A DNA stretch of 64,000 nt from Pecten maximus (lineage: Eukaryota). The stretch is taken from NCBI RefSeq assembly GCF_902652985.1, contig NC_047015.1:1736001-1800000 (forward strand), written 5' to 3'. Shown here in pieces: positions 2,651-57,356 of the stretch; position 1 is the first letter of the stretch; each line of letters begins with the position of its first letter. The notes beneath the pieces are model-generated. The model did no database searches, had not been told where the DNA came from, and saw nothing but the letters and a program-made list of their open reading frames with translations. A program made the translations under genes and the position numbers.

Positions 2651-3488
2651 TAGATTTCATACTACGCAACAGTTAGTGACATTATGTATCAATATTGATA
2701 TGTAGAAATGATTACCCAACTTATGAAGCATTCAAGTTTCTTGACATTTTAATTACTGGACCATATACAATACCTGTAAAACCAGAAATGTCTGTAACGT
2801 TGTAGTCAGTGGTGACACAGCGCTGATGTCCGAGTGTCAAACAATAATTGTACAACGCGTTACCATAGAAACTGTGCATCAAAGAAATAACTTATGAACC
2901 GAGAACTCACCATTAACTTCCTGATCTACTGAAACCAGAGGAACATTCCTTAACATACATTCAAATTGTCCTACCTTAGTCGAAGTTCTGAGAGGATAGT
3001 GTCGGACTGGGAGATCTTTTGATACCAATCTTCCTGTTCTCTGTAGGCAAAGTCCACTTTTAATAAGTTTCTAGCTGGGCGTTTAAACCAACAACACTAC
3101 TTTCGGGTGACTGGCCGCAACGAAAACACCTGTAAGAAACGAAAGTATGTGACAAGATGTTTTATAAACAACACCAAAGTATAGGATTCCGTGGATCTAA
3201 TCATGTGACTATTTCCAAAAGCCTGCTTTTATTGAAATGCCTGAGTGATGGGGGTTACGATAACGACACTGTCCTCGGTCAACACACGTAAAGCCGGGAG
3301 GGTGTGACATGGACGGGAGCGCCTGCTGACAGGGACATGCTGTCGTGCTGTTAGGCTTGGATCTTATCGGCACATTAATGACTTTAAACCTCGGGTAAGG
3401 TCAAAAGGGCTTTAAGGTTGTACCAATAGATAGGAGGTAATGACTATCTGTTTATATATACCGGACAACTGTCAGAGCTTTTCACACA

Positions 3489-17360: not shown

Positions 17361-17520
17361 CACATTCGCTCGACCATTACACGCGCATGTTTGCGAAACA
17401 CTCTCGTTTTACTCTTCACTGTGTTGTAGATAGGGAAGGACGAACCTTTCAGGTCTCAGTTACATTAATTACACTGTTGTAATCAATTCATCAGCATCAT
17501 ATCAAGTGCAATATTATTTA

Positions 17521-18431
17521 CGAGGGCTGATTGATATGTTGTGAGCCTCGTATTGAAGGATTTGAATTTTGTCGGACTCTTTTATAGAATTCCTTTTCTT
17601 GGCTGTCAAGAAAGTCATCCACTGCATATATATGACGTCATCATCGGAATGAAAGTGGGTGCCTGAAATAGCTGTTTTCAGTTTTGGAAATAGATGAAAG
17701 TCTGATGGAGGGAGGTCAGGTGAATAAGGTGGATGTTCAATCAATTTAAAGCCACAATCGTGAATGGCAGCCATGGCAATGACAGACTTGTGAACAGGAG
17801 CATTATCCTGATGAAATAACACACCTTTAGTGAACTTTCTGCAGAACTTAAGTTTAATATTTTCCCGTAACTGCCTCAGAAATGAAGAATAGTATGTGCC
17901 GTTGATTGTTTGTCCATTTTGGAGAAAATCTAGCAGCAAAAAATACCATCTGCACCCCAGAAAACCGAGGCCATAACCTCCCCAGCTGTTGGAACAGTCT
18001 TTACCATCTTTTGCGGGGATAGCCAGGGTGCTTCCATTGTTGCGATTGTTGTTTGGCCTCTGGGGTAAAATGATGGATCCATGTTTCGTCCATAGTGACA
18101 AAGCTATGAAGAAAGTTGGCAGAATCTTCCTCAAAAAGGTTAAGATAAGCAAGCGATAATGTGCGACTGGTGTGCTTCTGATCAACTGTCAGAAGTCTTT
18201 GTAGCCACCGGGCCGTAAGCTTCCTCATTGCAAGATCCTCGGACAGAATGGAATGTACTCTTGCCTGTGTCAGTCATAACAATATCTTGAACTTTATTTA
18301 CCATTTCTGGGGTTGCAATATTGCCAGGCATTGCAGGACGGGGATCATCCTCGAGGCTCTGTCGGCGGCGCTTAACTTCCGACCCCCACCTTTTCACTGT
18401 AGCATAGGAAGGGGCACCTTTGCAAAAGCCA
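17521..18431 (-). mobile_element. Decayed mariner (DD34D) transposon, 5'-truncated; frameshifted transposase
   Basis: TA + TIR CGAGGGCTGATTGATATGTTGTGAGCCTC at 17521. Transposase motifs are spread over frames: APSYATVKRW, W(L)QRLLT, VTMDETWIHHF, FHQDNAPVH, HPPYSPDLPPSDFHLF. The other end is lost at the 47-bp array. Confidence 0.93.
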
Positions 18432-23032: not shown

Positions 23033-23146
23033 TCAGAATGGAGATATGTATGTATAGGCCATTTTACAAAAGCACAAACATCTCATTTATCATGATGCTT
23101 TTTATCGTCAGTCAAGTAGTAATAACGACAGTACAGACAAGGAAAT

Positions 23147-23185
23147 TGTCGATTTTTCGAGGCAATCTGCCCCTTTATCAAGACA
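23147..23185 (-). ncRNA. Minimal type-I hammerhead ribozyme-like motif in a solo Penelope pLTR fragment
   Basis: Minus strand reads TGTC-TTGATAA-A-GGGGC-AGATT-GCCTC-GAA-AAAT-C-GACA; flanks ~23115-23215 are homologous to 47540-47640. Confidence 0.6.
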
Positions 23186-23222
23186 CAAGTAAATTACAAC
23201 CGATCACACATATATATTTATA

Positions 23223-45630: not shown

Positions 45631-47570
45631 ACCCTGATTTAAAACGTTTATCTTATATATGTAGTTACAAAAATGCTTTGAATATATTAAACGATGTAAA
45701 TCTACAGAAAATTACAAAAATCTGATTGATAAAAAGGTTGTGTAACTGGACAGAAGTTACTAAGAAAAGAAACTACATTTGGTTTCAAGGGGACATGTTG
45801 GAATACATGAGAAAGTTTAGTTCGAAACTGCTCTATAAGAATTTTTCATCACCTAAAGCATCTGGTCCCGAAATGAGCATAGATTTGTTTATAACCATTT
45901 TAAAGGCTTGGCTGCTGATGCAAGCGATGAAACCGGTTTTGCAAATATTTTTGATAACGATCCAAATGATAACTCCATTGTGTCATTGTTTGAGGAGTTT
46001 AACTGTCCTATTGTTATTGATGATATTGATACAGCTTTACGCAATTTGAATCGTGGGAAATCACATGGAATTGATGGAATTCTAAATGAATGTTTTTTAG
46101 AAGGTAAATATTTATTGTTGCCTGCCTTGTGTACATTATTTAATGAAACTTTGGACTATTTCACTACTGACTGGCCCGTTGTGGCCATAACGCCAGTTAA
46201 AAAAGGGGGTGAAAATCAAACCCTAATGATTTTAGGTGTATCAGCCTGTTAAGTTGTCTTGGTAAATTGTTCACATTCGTTTTAAATACTAGACTTCTTA
46301 GGTGGTCTAAATCATTTGATTTTATTACAGATGCACAGTTTGGATTTCACAGTGGTCGCAGTACTGTAGATGCGACGTTTGCTCTACATTCAATTAATAC
46401 TAAACCGAAAACAAACGGTTATATTGCTGTTTTCTTGATTTTCACAAAGCCTTTGATTGCGTAGACAGAGTTAACCTGTGGAACAAGCTGTAGGAGTCAG
46501 AGGCAAGTTTCTGCATGTTATTAAATCAATATATAATAATGTGAAGTCTTGTGTGAAATTGGTTATCTACATTTTTTTTTTTTTAAATATCGGTTTATTA
46601 CAAGGCTAAATTTTGTCGCCAATACTTTTTTTATGTACGGTAATGATTTTGAGTCTTTCTTCATTTCAAAATGTAACAATCATTATGATTTTGAAAAGTT
46701 AAGTTTATTTCTTATGCTATATGCTGATGATCTAGTCCTGTTTCCGGAAACTGTCGAAGGCCTATAGAACCTTCTAGATAATCTTGACATTTATTGCTCG
46801 CAATGGAAATTAACTGTAAACGGTGAAAAAACAAAAGTTGTGATTTTCCGTAAAGGTGGTAAAATTCGAAATAATGAATTATGGCTTTACCATGGAGAAA
46901 AACTTGATTGTGTTGACAAGTTCTCTACCATGGTGTAAACTTTAGATTCAATGATAAATTCACGAACATACAGAAGAAATTGTCGGATCAATGACGTAAA
47001 GCCGTATTTGCTTCATTTCTAAATGTTCAAATACGAGTCTAAATTGTAAAACCATGTTGAGTTTGTTTGATATTTATGTAAGCAGTGTTTTGTTCTATGT
47101 ATGGGAAGTGTGGGGCTCGACAGAAGGATCAGACATTGAAAATATGAATGTTCATTTTGTAAGAAAATACTTAAGGTTAAAAAATCTACAATTAATGTAA
47201 TGGTATACAGGGAACTTAATTGTTTTCCTTAGAATATAAACGAAGATATATGATTATTAAATATTGGTTAAAATTACTTGACACGAGAAATTGTATATTG
47301 AATACTGCATATAATCTCTATTAAGAAAAATCACTGGTTTATGTTTTAATTGAGTACACGGTGTAAAGGAATTACTGTTCATTAGGTTTCGGTGAGGTAT
47401 GGCAATCACCAAAGAACTCTGAAGCTTTTTTATCTTGTATACGGCAAAGAATTTTTTGATCAAGCCAAACAGTATTTGAGAGATTTATTAGAAAAGTCTT
47501 CTTCTTATATATATATGTATATATATATATTGGGCAAAGAAGTAATTCAAACAGTGTAAACAATAAGGTT

Positions 47571-47609
47571 TGTTAAATTTTCGAGGCAATCCGCCCCTTT
47601 ATCAAAACA
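47571..47609 (-). ncRNA. Minimal hammerhead ribozyme-like motif in the inverted pLTR
   Basis: Reverse complement identical to 49261-49299. Confidence 0.6.
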
Positions 47610-48198
47610 CAAAAAATTACAAATGCAATCACATAATATATATAAGAAATACTGGAAATACAATGAAATACAATAAGAATAATGTTTTAGTAACTGGAGA
47701 AACCACAATGAACCCTTCGGCAAACGTGGGCCGAAGGCGGATACTAGCGTGACTGCATCATGTTCAACACTAGAACGCTATGCGACCAACGGCAGAGATA
47801 TTTTGAATTCCCCCGCACGTGAAAGCATATCGAAGAGTTCAAAGACGATTCGTCCCTAAATACTGCTAGTGGACGACATTGCATTCATATAAAAAATGTT
47901 GCATTATCGTCTCTACAGTGATTGATTAAATATCGTGTACAAAGTCTGAAAAACTTTAGAAAAATATGTTTGAGACTCACATTTAGTCGCCTCCCGCCAT
48001 CATGCAACAGCATCTTGGTCCGAGTTGGTCCGAATCGTCTGTTTCCCGTAGCGTCCTGTAGGGACACTTCGGCATTCGTATTTCTTATATTTTCAGTCTT
48101 GATAAATATTTGTAGTAGTTTTTTCACACCACTCTCTATAATTCTAATGATCTAAAACATATATTTCTATATAACTTCTTTGACCCTTATATATATAA

Positions 48199-48588
48199 AC
48201 GTGCAAATTGTGCCCATACACGGAGTCCACAGACACGTTTAAATGTGTAATAAACAACCGTGTTTATCACATTTTACAAACACTGACATGCACATCAGGC
48301 AATGTTGTATATCTCCTCTCCTGCAAAAAATGCAAAATGCAGTATGTTGGAGAAACCAGCACAAAGCTCAACATCAGAATCAACAATCACCGTTGCTCCA
48401 TCAAGCAAAACAGACCAGACTTTCCTGTGGCAAGGCATTTCAATTTACCTAGTCACAGTTGGAAGGATATGCAGGTGGTCGCCATTGATCACTGTCCTAC
48501 CTGGAATGAAACGAAACGTCGTTCCAGAAAAAGATACTGGATCACCAATCTCCAAACCTGCTACCCTCGGGGTATGAACGAACGTTAA
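48199..48588 (+). pseudogene. GIY-YIG endonuclease domain of a Penelope-like retroelement (5'-truncated, RT absent)
   Basis: CKLCPY...CTSGNVVYLLSCKKCKMQYVGET...RINNHR...VARHF...WI..LQTCYPRGMN; the expected catalytic Glu in R-E-x-x-WI appears as Lys. Confidence 0.88.
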
Positions 48589-49260
48589 AGACGTCTTCTG
48601 GATATACTCTCCATCTGACCATTATATCTGACTATTCGTGTAGTTAATTATTCAATTTGTTAAATGTTTCATAATTTCTGTACTTTTGGGGGCATCTATT
48701 CATTTTTGCTCTTTGAGACTCACATTTAGTCGCCTCCCGCCATCATGCAACAGCATCTTGGTCCGAGTTGGTCCGAATCGTCTGTTTCCCGTAGCGTCCT
48801 GTAGGGACACTTCGGCATTCGTATTTCTTATATTTTCAGTCTTGATAAATATTTGTAGCAGTTTTTTCACACCACTCTCTATAATTCTTATGATCTAACA
48901 CATTTTTTTCTAAAGTTTTTCAGACTTTGTACACGATATTTAATCAATCACTGTAGAGACGATAATGCAACATTTTTTATATGAATGCAATGTCGTCCAC
49001 TAGCAGTATTTAGGGACGAATCGTCTTTTAACCCTTCGGAATACTTTCACGTGCGGGGGAATTCAAAATATCTCTGCCGTTGGTCGCATAGCGTTCTATT
49101 GTTTGAACATGATGCAGTCACGCTAGTATCCGCCTTCGGCCCACGTTTGCCGAAGGGTTCATTGTGGTTTCTCCAGTTACTAAAACATTATTCTTATTGT
49201 ATTTTATTGTATTTCCAGTACTTCTTATATATATTATGTGATTGTATTTGTGATTTTTTG

Positions 49261-49299
49261 TGTTTTGATAAAGGGGCGGATTGCCTCGAAAATTTAACA
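49261..49299 (+). ncRNA. Minimal type-I hammerhead ribozyme-like motif (U3:A8 variant) in the PLE pLTR
   Basis: Stem I TGTT/AACA, core TTGATAA+A, stem II GGGGC/GCCTC, GAA, palindromic stem III AATT, predicted cleavage after 49295. Confidence 0.62.
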
Positions 49300-49859
49300 A
49301 ACCTTATTGTTTACACTGTTTGAATTACTTCTTTGCCCCATATATATATATATATATCAATCAACATATTGTGGATAGTTTTCCATTCAGTTTTATTAAA
49401 CCATTATACACTTATGAAATACAGAATATGTCTATCACAACTGTGTATGTCTGGGCATTCGTTAGCAATCGAAACTTGTCGTTTTAACAATATTGATCGA
49501 AATAAACTTTGTATGAGATATTATTATATTTGTAAGTCGCCGACTGAGAGAGAAGATCAATATCGTTTTATATCAATATGTAATATGTATAACAATTTAA
49601 GAAAGCGCCTCATTTAACCCGTACTCCGCTTTGTATTTGTATTGCTGCTCTATACCAATAATATGCATTGTGTTGTTTATAATATGTACTTATGGGCCGT
49701 ATGTCCCACAGTCAATAAAGAAATTGAAATTAAGGTGTGGATATGTGGTCAATAAATATACATGTGTGGATATGTAACCAGTATATACATGTGTGGATAT
49801 TTGACCAATATATACATATACAGATGTGGATATGTGGGTAATATATATATATATATATA

Positions 49860-52505
49860 TGCAATATTCTAAGTGGGGTCTTACCAAGGCTTTGAAGAGA
49901 TTGGAAAACATTTCTTCATCTAAATACATGAATGTCTTGAATATTAGACCAACTATCCAATTTGCTTTCTTTGCCTGGATGTTAACATGTTCCGTGAATT
50001 TGAGGTCGAAATAAACACCCAGATCCTTTTCGGTTCCCACTTTTTGAATAAAGTAAGTTCATAATCAGAAGGTTCATTTCCAGTGCTAATATTCATATGG
50101 TTACATTTCTCCTTGTTAAGCTTCATTTGTCCGGTTCCTGTGGAACCCCGCTTGTCTCTTGTACTGTGGTACACTTTTTCCCCGCTGATGGTGACCTGCC
50201 GCTCCATACCACATAAAAACCCTATACCATTTTCCTGTGTTACTCAAGATGCCGTATCCCTCGACTTTCTCCAGTAATCTTTGATGGGGAACAGTATCAA
50301 AGGCCATCTTGAAGTCAAGGTTCACTGTATCCACTTGTTTCCCAGTATCTAATGCCTCTGTCCAATCTTCCGTGACTTCTAGTATCTGAAGATTGCAAGA
50401 TCTTTTGCTTCTAAAACTGTATTGATGTTTTGAGAACAGCTCATTCCTGGCTATATGCTCCGTTACCCTATTTCTTATTGTCCTCTGGAGCATTTTACCA
50501 ATAACTGATATTAAGCTTACGGGCCAGTAGTTGCTACACTCCTGTATACTTCCCGACTTTAAGATTGGTATTACGTTTGCCTTTTTTCAGTCATCCGGGA
50601 GTCTTCCTTCCTTCATCGACTTATTAAACACTGCATTCAGTGGCCTAATGAGCTATTCTATTGTCTGCTTGATGAAATGAGGATGGATGTTGTCAGGACC
50701 TGGTGATTTTGATCCATCCATAGTCTTCACTGCAGCTTTGATTTCTTCATCTGTGATGTCGGTGTCAACCAAGTCGTACAAGATATTTTTTCTTAGGAAG
50801 TGTGGAATATTTTCATTCAACTCCTTGGTGTAAACACTGGCAAAGAATGTTGATAATGCCTCTGCCTTCTCATTCGACGTAAGTTCCCCTCCTCTACAAA
50901 AGAAATTTGAGACTGCGGCCTTCGTCTTGGTCTTGGAACGGGTGTACCTCCAGAACTGCTTCGGGATTGTTTTAATATTCAAAGCTACATCTCTTTCCTT
51001 GGTAAGTACCGAGTTCCTGACTAGATTGGTTGCCATATTCTGAGCCTGATCGTATTTCCTGTAGTTATTGTCAGACTTACAATGTAAGTATTTTTTCCAC
51101 TTCGTCCTCTTTGTTTTCAGTGCCTGAACCGCAGTTTGATTAAGTGTGTCTCCAGCTGCAACTAGGCTCCATCTTGTTGACCGGTACATATTTATCAAAA
51201 CTTCTTGATATTTTCTCAACAAGATACAAATGTAGTTCCATGCCTCATCTACCGACATCCTCTCCATACAAACCCAGTAATCAACCGCTAGATCTGTTTT
51301 GGTCTTCCTATAGTCTGCCTTGAAGAAGTTTCGTTTACTATTCAATGTTAAAAACAATAAAACAATGGTCACTCTTACCCAGACCAGACTGATAAGCCAT
51401 ATTATCCACCATGTAATCCTCATTTGTCAGGACAAGGTCTAACAATGATGGCACATTGTTTTCCCGAAATCTTGTTGACCGAGTCACATGTTGGTAGATA
51501 TATTTATCCTGCACCGCTTCCGTTGATTTTGTTGTATAATGAGTCTTGCTGGTTGTAGTAGACTGACTTTTCGAGATAGTCTTCTTCATATTAAAGTTAG
51601 AGTAACAATTCGATCATTGTTTTCAACGGTAGAGTTAGGGCTTCTATACACACAAGTCTTCCCTAGTATAATTATACAGAATACAGATTTCTTCAAATTG
51701 TCTACAATAGTAACTTCCTTCATATTCAGATTTTCCTTGATATAGGTTAACATTTCCCGAGTCAGATAGTCATTCTCTCCCGAGATGTTAGTGATCATAC
51801 TGTATCCATGTACTGCTGCAGATTTATCTCCAGGAAATGCTTCCTGGGTAAAACTTCTGTCAAAGCAACAATGTCGAATTCCTCATCAATTACAAGTGAC
51901 TTGAGTCCTATTATCTTGGTTAGGGTCAGAGTTAAGTATATTGGTTAAAAGGGGTTACGCCCTTTCAATGGGGGTGAGGATGGACTATATAACTGTATCC
52001 TCACTCTACGGTCGCCATCAGTTACATATGACTGATCTTAATTTTGGGCCCCGAGTATAGGGTTAAGTTCATATGTGTTGTGTACACCATCTCATGGTTC
52101 TGGCTGATCCTCTCTTTCTTTTCCGAAAATCTCCTTGCTCTCCTTTCCTTATACTCTAGCCTTTGTTGCACAGTTAGGCATCTCAGTAATATGACATCTT
52201 TAAACTTTGGACTTGCCTTGGAATTATTATTTCTGGCTTCCTCAAGGAGAAACTTACGTTGGCTTTTACTTCCAATCTTACAGACGAGTGGATGGTTTTC
52301 GTTAGCTTGGTGGGCCCCTATTCAGATAAACATCACCATGTTCAGATTAGCTACTCCAAAAGTAGGATCCTAGTTTCCTAACTAGTTTATCATCAGAAAT
52401 CTTGTCTTGTTTTGAGTCACCACTGTGGAGTTCTGGGAGATTAAAAAGAATGACATTATTTTCTTTGTCCTGTCTCTGGTGTAGTTCCTTAGTTCTAACA
52501 TCTAA
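49860..52505 (-). mobile_element. Degenerate CR1-type LINE (ORF1 remnant, APE endonuclease, internally deleted RT)
   Basis: ENNVILFNLPE (ORF1), DIVALTE, CVYRSPNS, SLLDLVLTN, LGKSDH, SPGPDNIHP, LDFKMAFDTVPHQRLL, EKDLGV, LVRPHLEYC; the GVPQG/YADD region is missing. Confidence 0.92.
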
Positions 52506-55813: not shown

Positions 55814-56361
55814 CTACAATTAATGAACAATCAATATTTTATTCATCCGTATTAAAAGCATTAACATTTTTTAACTGACCATAATAATTGGCATAAAATT
55901 AAAAAGAATAAAAGTTTACAGTCGAATTGTACATTACATGAGTTAACTATTTACTGCCTAAAACAACAGATTTTAAACAAACTTCCAGAACATATTGTAA
56001 TCCTTCCTGTGATATTTATATATGTACATATTAATGAAATATACATGGGCATCGGATCATTACTTTTAACAGATAACAGGAAGGCAAGTAATCCCTCCAC
56101 ATGTCAAAATAGTTAAAGACAATTACACCCTTTGTGAATTAAAACCTGCCTCATAGGTAATAATTTTAAACATCTTATATTTTACTAGCACCTTGGTTAA
56201 ATACTAGTAGTTATTCATATAATCTATGTCAGAGTTTCTTATTAGAACATTCAGGACTGTACGTGCCAAACTTGGAATTCAAAGGCATTCAAACCTAATT
56301 ACACCTACAACTTTATATTTTTCATACATATATTTAATTTGTTGTCTACAACATGTGTTAC

Positions 56362-56941
56362 CCGTCTCTGGTTCTGGATCTGTGGCGTAAAATCTTCCAG
56401 AACTTCTGGCATCCACAAGCTGGAATTCTTTGTCCTCTATGTTTCTAACAATATCTTCAAAAGATTTCACCAATGTTTTATTCATCGAAGCAGAATAGGT
56501 TTCTTTTGAAAATGATGGTATTTCTGAAGATGTTGGATAACCTTCCAGACACCATTTTGGGAACCCTCCATTCAGAAGAGAAATTGATTTGTGTCCAAAG
56601 ATTTTGAATGTCCACCATGCTCGTGGGGCGGAAAAGAATCCATTTTCACTGTTGTCATAAATAATGACATGGGTGTTGTTACAGATCCCTAAATTACCAA
56701 CGTAGTCTTCAAAGTGGGACTGACGAGGAACTGTGTGACTGAACTGTGATGTTTTATCAGAACACTCGTCAATGTCGAAGAAAGAAGCTTTCGGTATATG
56801 TTTTTCAACATATTCCTTTCTACCATCCCTTTGTAAACTTGGCAAATGCCATGAAGCATCAAGAACTCGCATATTCTTCACATTTCCTGTCAGGGAATCA
56901 TGAAGCAACTTGGCAGAAATAAGCGTATTGAATTTCTTCAT
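56362..56941 (-). CDS. MPST: 3-mercaptopyruvate sulfurtransferase, exon 1 (spliced CDS 879 nt, 292 aa)
   Basis: VLDASWHLP, HIPKASFFDID, SAPRAWWTFKIFGH, LNGGFPKW, QLVDARSSGRF...PEP; donor G|GTAAC. Confidence 0.95.
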
Positions 56942-57356
56942 TATAGCTACCTAATTACTAAAATACTGTGTAAAAGAGTATCTAATTACTAAAATACAAT
57001 GTAAAAGACAGTCTCTAATTACTAAAATACTGTGTCAAAGAGTCTCTAATTACTAAAATACTGTGTAAAAGAGTCTCTGTCAGGCTATGTCAGTGGTCTG
57101 CTGGTGTTGACAGATCCAAGTCTGAAGGTTGTAAGAACCACACTTGAAGCTTGAAATGTTGCCGCTACAACCAAAGAAAAATAAATACACGGACTTCTAC
57201 TATTTATAGATTTAGGTTATTTGAATGGACCATTTTCTACTTTTATAATGTACATAATCTGATATTGTTCATTTATTTAATATATACTGTGCAATAAGCT
57301 TAATTAAGTGGTATTTTTATTTGGTATGTTATAAGCGATTTATGTTGTCAGTAAAG
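56942..57356. promoter_or_regulatory. Putative bidirectional promoter / 5'UTRs between head-to-head genes
   Basis: Divergent ATGs 415 bp apart; short tandem repeat CTAATTACTAAAATACTGTGTAAAAGAG at 56950-57078. Confidence 0.55.

Follow-up and report, generated by a model that had tools for sequence, protein, structure and literature searches.

Minimal hammerhead ribozymes of Penelope-like elements (PLEs) were described by Cervera and De la Peña (2014, PMC4209133), and the available parts of that paper list as their general features an extra nucleotide that separates position 9 from 10.1, a G10.1-C11.1 pair and palindromic positions 15.2-16.2. A U3-A8 core was reported from the Cercyon PLE of Schistosoma mansoni, and the authors' own descriptor of this variant gave about 1,300 matches; in the supplement, the S. 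mansoni(3) row carries the 8-nt core UUGAUAAA, identical to the one considered here, and a Saccoglossus PLE row combines U3 with G8. According to the same source, the monomer of a PLE minimal hammerhead was inactive and dimers were weakly active; the dimer model is summarised in a review (PMC6765202, consulted in part). Natural U3-A8 covariation is also recorded by Perreault et al. (2011, PMC3088659), who, in the part available, refer to U3-A8 ribozymes shown earlier to be active in vitro. For the Anolis element PAc, the accessible sections of PMC11167929 report that cleavage required protein, that core mutants left insertion in vitro unaffected, and that RNA-seq ends at the cleavage site were not found.

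Here we analyse a minimal hammerhead motif in a stretch of 64,000 nucleotides of the Pecten maximus genome, which we call the window. The motif is a new example of the published variant type, residing in two newly described Penelope families that we designate A and B. The initial annotation had presented it as an overlooked kind of hammerhead, which cannot be upheld, as U3-A8, the extra nucleotide and the palindrome were all published in 2014 (PMC4209133, in the parts available). No description of families A and B themselves was found in the literature searched, and they may have an entry in Repbase or Dfam.

The motif in the window

The motif and its parts, together with the two other copies, are as follows.

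49261..49299 (+): family-A minimal type-I hammerhead motif (sequence, pattern match, hammerhead descriptor, predicted fold)
49261-64/49296-99 (+): its stem I, TGTT/AACA
49265-71 (+): its core from U3 to A9, TTGATAA, followed by the extra A at 49272 (+)
49273-77/49283-87 (+): its stem II, GGGGC/GCCTC, closing a loop of 5 nt
49288-90 (+): GAA, followed by the palindromic AATT at 49291-94 (+) and U17 at 49295 (+)
49295/49296 (+): predicted cut, after a UUU triplet
47571..47609 (-): second family-A hammerhead, an identical 39-mer inside an inverted arm (sequence, pattern, descriptor)
23147..23185 (-): family-B hammerhead, stem I TGTC/GACA (sequence, descriptor, family contexts)

We confirm that the motif at these positions is real, and that the three copies noticed initially, at 49261(+), 47609(-) and, in diverged form, 23185(-), are present as described: the pattern search of the window returned 3 matches, whereas 100 shuffles averaged 0.00, and the same three motifs and nothing else were found when a relaxed hammerhead descriptor was applied and the pairing checked. 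The copy at 23185(-) differs from the family-A motif by the loop AGATT and by AAAT-C in place of AATT-T, the A for U at position 16.2 breaking the AATT palindrome. It was also anticipated correctly that canonical searches would miss the family, with 0 Rfam matches in the window at gathering score and, for 47400-49500 at E<=10, 5 matches of which none was a hammerhead.

Several other features were seen in the window. A 223-aa stop-to-stop frame at 56279-56950(-) has a rhodanese-like domain (PF00581, E=1.6e-11) and is possibly a host exon or a retrocopy; a DDE transposase fragment lies at 17514-18188(-) (Transposase_1 and DDE_3, E about 1e-5); and a reverse transcriptase (RT) fragment at 50116-50586(-) (RVT_1, E=4e-15), giving no match to the PLE protein, likely belongs to a decayed LINE-type element. 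Minisatellite arrays with units of 24-145 nt are very dense over the whole window (70 rows).

The host element

The element parts around the three motifs are these.

48197..49344 (+): main 5'-truncated PLE family-A copy, with endonuclease end, 3' UTR/pseudo-LTR, hammerhead and a tail of ~45-49 nt
48199..48588 (+): C-terminal GIY-YIG fragment of the PLE open reading frame, 129 aa (Pfam PF01541, E=5e-7)
47969..48169 (+): partial tandem copy, 201 nt long, of the pseudo-LTR's 5' part, a direct repeat of 48712-48912
47516..47979 (-): inverted 5'-truncated pseudo-LTR (3' end) of the same family-A element
49345..49357 (no strand): (TA)n run at the element's 3' end, the likely insertion target, with a matching run at ~47506-47529
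23111..23212 (-): PLE family-B 3'-end fragment of 102 nt, between two minisatellite arrays

The identity proposed initially, a minimal type-I hammerhead of a PLE, is borne out by the GIY-YIG domain, the pseudo-LTR layout and the RT-bearing relatives. The main copy is 98% identical across 1151 nt to the near-full-length element L035, and its GIY-YIG fragment corresponds, at 97% identity, to aa 712-840 of the protein P0002, which has RVT_1 at 327-511 and GIY-YIG at 747-831, with the linker and a DKG motif visible in the translation; a PDB sequence search with P0002 gave 0 matches. An 840-codon open frame encoding RT, a CxxxCxxC linker and, at the C terminus, GIY-YIG was found in 1 of 20 fetched relatives, namely L035, where the motif lies 680 nt past the stop. 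The inverted-repeat arms carrying the 47609 and 49261 copies are 96-98% complementary, and these two copies are the opposed ends of one complex 5'-truncated family-A insertion bounded by (TA)n.

The family-B fragment shares 93% identity with the near-full-length B copies L201 and L202. A and B are sister PLE families whose near-full-length elements encode both RT and GIY-YIG, and the motif sits in their pseudo-LTRs or end repeats, being present in both pseudo-LTRs of L201. Non-LTR retrozymes are defined, in the part of bioRxiv 2026.07.22.740005 available, by tandem units that are short and non-coding and carry one hammerhead apiece; the copies examined here were coding PLEs, truncated or nearly full, and inverted pairs, and no such units were found among them. 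In the 5' UTR of L035, a GT...AG stretch whose 3' end is rich in pyrimidines (2979-3152, +) resembles the known PLE-leader intron; no splice joint for it was seen in the contigs from RNA runs.

Genome-wide copies and core states

A search of the host genome (918 Mb) with the core pattern gave 1,029 matches, and the reversed control gave 0. U3 occurs in 68/69 family-A and 36/36 family-B contexts and A8 in 66/69 and 32/36, respectively, in a non-random sample that included loci picked for G8; U3:A8 is the norm, or master state, across the A/B lineage. The extra A after A9 was found in all 69 family-A contexts and 35 of the 36 from family B, the G-C pair at 10.1-11.1 in 8/8 distinct rows, and the AATT palindrome (15.2-16.2) is the usual form in both families. 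For family B, AATTC with an intact stem I was seen in 12/36 contexts and AAATC in 2/36; AATT-C being the usual form, the cut triplet of this family is normally UUC. Consequently, the UUU site predicted initially stands for family A, and the predicted AUC is a minor family-B variant.

The 3:8 states among 23 near-canonical matches comprise 2 C3:G8, 11 U3-G8, 9 C3-A8 and 1 G3-G8. A hidden subfamily with a canonical core was considered and rejected, just two of these near-matches having C3:G8 and coming from different families. G8 is found in 7/32 matches of an older A-like subfamily, and a tree of 58 contexts was poorly resolved, with one clade of 4 U3-G8 copies (local support 0.85).

Hammerhead-like motifs with canonical C3:G8 were noticed elsewhere in the genome, at L207:7399(+), L208:7236(+) and L200:495(-) and in L176/L177; the first three loci also contain distant PLE protein matches. 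A dispersed repeat (L142, L149, L152-L169 and others) combines a box resembling U3:A8 with a 7-bp hairpin and with GAAAATT; no stem I is evident in its flanks, and it is probably not a hammerhead.

Copy ends at the predicted cut

The 3' ends of family-A copies lie mostly 43-49 nt beyond the predicted cut, running into TA repeats (26/41 contexts), which means that the reverse-transcription templates of those copies spanned the site. A further 7/41 contexts are family-A copies apparently ending at +148 to +164, and in L051 and L201 the 3'-terminal motif is repeated ~135-150 nt beyond the predicted cut; the repeated motif and these ends together suggest two reverse-transcription start sites.

For the 5' ends, 665 family-A 3' anchors were collected, 60 of which lacked the core in register; 7 of these 60 matches were removed (6 passenger variants and 1 duplicate), 52 distinct rows were obtained, and 15 of them were set aside as internal indels or substitutions, leaving 37 ends. 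The corresponding family-B set started from 88 matches, with 17 passenger copies left out and 27/67 distinct rows explained by internal changes, which gave 40 ends. The filter recovers a part of the truncated copies only. The 37 family-A ends include 1 at +1, 6 at -1 or -2, 7 at -4 and 6 at +17; 14/37 fall within -4 to +1 (binomial p=0.009 against a uniform expectation, in a window chosen post hoc), and clusters of equal size lie at A/T-rich spots elsewhere (+17, +9 to +11). L035 itself starts within 2 nt of the predicted cut. Family B has 2/40 ends at +1, which have their flanks in common and probably go back to one event, and a cluster at -2 to -7; C17, which cannot come from a TA target, is kept in 9/14 ends upstream of the cut. 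We therefore rejected a pile-up of 5' ends at the cut as a sign of cleavage in vivo, given the clusters elsewhere and the C17 retained in family B, and in our reading the clusters reflect A/T microhomology to the target rather than cleavage. This agrees with Anolis PAc, for which uncut RNA was the main insertion template in vitro, according to the accessible part of PMC11167929.

We also considered whether a family-B variant without the cut site (26/88 matches) proves that dead hammerheads transpose, and rejected it: the 9 examples examined share both flanks and thus represent one insertion, carried inside another repeat. Fragments of PLE 3' ends were seen as passengers in other chromosome-spread repeats as well (L117, L123, L125, L130, L132, L133, L135, L136 and L138, and also L093, L094 and L105), and one such fragment has its cut site deleted.

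In two RNA-recorded runs, parts of the element are present as contigs, and none among the contigs listed spans the cut with 31 letters to either side of it. Expression of the element was dropped as a conclusion from these contigs, which show neither RNA ends nor strand.

Conservation, covariation and folding

The proteins of families A and B share 534/796 identical residues, the four-fold sites are saturated (68/215 identical) and the 3' UTRs are unalignable. The motif is nevertheless identical at 36/39 positions, against 23-28/39 in adjoining windows and 15-19/39 farther upstream, and such identity next to saturated four-fold sites suggests that the motif is under selection; this peak, centred on the motif, is the best evidence for a function. 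The intermediate level of 23-28/39 reaches from ~40 nt upstream of the motif to 150 nt downstream. Stem II with its loop is near-invariant between the saturated families, beyond what pairing needs, so that a short exchange of the motif module between the families, or a role in protein binding, might contribute.

Both of these observations count for an alternative, that the motif is a dead or near-dead hammerhead descendant, kept for protein binding or as a module of a promoter or of the reverse-transcription start. It is also favoured by the UUU triplet, which is poorly cleaved in minimal hammerheads. The copy ends, which bear no signature at the cut, can be added to this, as can the insertion of PAc in vitro, unaffected by hammerhead mutants in the accessible part of PMC11167929. 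Against it, every catalytic position is retained, the 3:8 pair and stem I have changed in a compensated manner, and the 39-nt motif itself forms a sharp peak of identity; on balance we find this alternative unlikely.

The stem-I covariation noted at the beginning, TGTT/AACA against TGTC/GACA, is a real difference and is weak as covariation. In stem I, family B and the old A-like copies have C-G, the young A copies have U-A and one copy has U-G; changes on both sides affect 1/12 pairs, which was equalled by 165/500 shuffles, and the two TGTT/AACA copies of the window, being arms of one insertion, are not independent evidence. Within this genome, the covariation is a single family-level event and is not significant. 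In the predicted fold stems I and II are formed, with an energy no better than that of shuffles (z -0.89 and -1.25); the AAUU duplex alone is predicted to be unstable (+2.2 kcal/mol), and when two molecules are folded together, the prediction has them pair via stem II and not as a double hammerhead.

Proposed mechanism

Taking the observed PLE context, copy number, U3:A8 norm, A/B conservation and 3'-end positions together with published relatives, from which we infer folding, dimerisation and cleavage, we propose, with a probability of roughly 0.7, that the motif is a slow minimal hammerhead, acting only as a dimer or with the aid of protein, by which a minority of the element's RNAs would be cut, and that reverse transcription would start downstream on uncut RNA. 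In tandem transcripts, two AAUU segments would form helix III in trans, with U3:A8 standing in for the C3:G8 pair, and cleavage after UUU in family A or UUC in family B may trim some of the transcripts. Reverse transcription would begin downstream of the motif, on RNA still spanning it, and most inserted copies would then be derived from uncut RNA.

Another possibility, that cutting is efficient and unit-length RNA is re-ligated to a circle and copied through the rejoined site, so that the copies look uncut, was already proposed as a model for PLEs (PMC4209133, in the parts available) and would suit both the 3' ends past the cut and the pseudo-LTR-to-5'UTR head-to-tail junction, found at 244 places with the intact motif read through in most of 30 examined, but we consider it quite improbable, as uncut tandem transcripts give the same picture and the data are assembled contigs, in which RNA ends and circle junctions are invisible.

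The copies of the window are likely inert passengers. Its intact copies face opposite ways, so no tandem dimer is available on one transcript, with one sense copy on each, and in a read-through RNA of the insertion the motif copies would be buried in a hairpin of ~460 bp.

The work adds two further Penelope families to the published class of minimal hammerheads and shows again that Rfam and searches limited to CUGANGA undercount hammerheads. A young lineage of ~1,000 copies can serve as test material, offering natural C:G, U-G and U:A cores and UUU next to UUC in one background, and the A/B lineage may be useful for understanding the role of hammerheads in endonuclease-bearing PLEs, a subject of PMC8557442 in its available part.

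Comparison with known hammerheads and Penelope-like elements

In the architecture of its host the motif resembles the Neptune and Nematis PLEs as the available part of PMC8557442 describes them, with RT, a CX2-5CxxC linker, a C-terminal GIY-YIG and the DKG motif, pseudo-LTRs in tandem and inverted arrangement, insertion into (TA)n and a hammerhead near the 3' end. Unlike in Neptune and Nematis, the tail past the cut is ~45-49 nt here, and the likeness is one of architecture. The natural U3-A8 hammerheads of PMC3088659 show the same compensatory pair, and the available part of that paper ties it neither to PLEs nor to a loop-less helix III.

The PLE hammerhead of Crassostrea gigas, from the supplement of PMC4209133 as far as available, shares by eye the GUC/GAC stem I, AAUU, UUU, a 5-bp stem II opening with GGG and a 5-nt loop, and its first bases past the cut are the same as in family B. 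In contrast to the motif here, it has C3:G8, A at position 7 and two differing stem-II pairs; compared by eye, it looks homologous to our motif and lends the helices some cross-species covariation support. One may imagine that the 3:8 pair has switched stepwise in nature, from C:G as in the oyster relative, through a mobile U-G sub-lineage of which the G8 copies of the older subfamily would be the trace, to the fixed U:A, and that a motif strongly selected yet leaving no mark at insertion ends would be a tuned-down, protein-gated RNA switch and not a device for processing at integration; we offer this as a doubtful speculation.

The closest likeness is to the PLE minimal hammerheads of PMC4209133, in the parts of the paper and supplement available: the type-I layout within a pseudo-LTR, the short helix I, the extra 9/10.1 nucleotide, G10.1-C11.1, palindromic 15.2-16.2 positions, the lack of loop 3, a U-rich 5' flank and U3-A8 are all shared, and the motif fits the minimal hammerhead consensus of the supplement save at positions 3 and 8. 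It differs from those hammerheads in the host and the element family and in a helix II of 5 bp against 7-8 bp, and, unlike in the examples given there, the variant core is here the norm of the whole A/B lineage.
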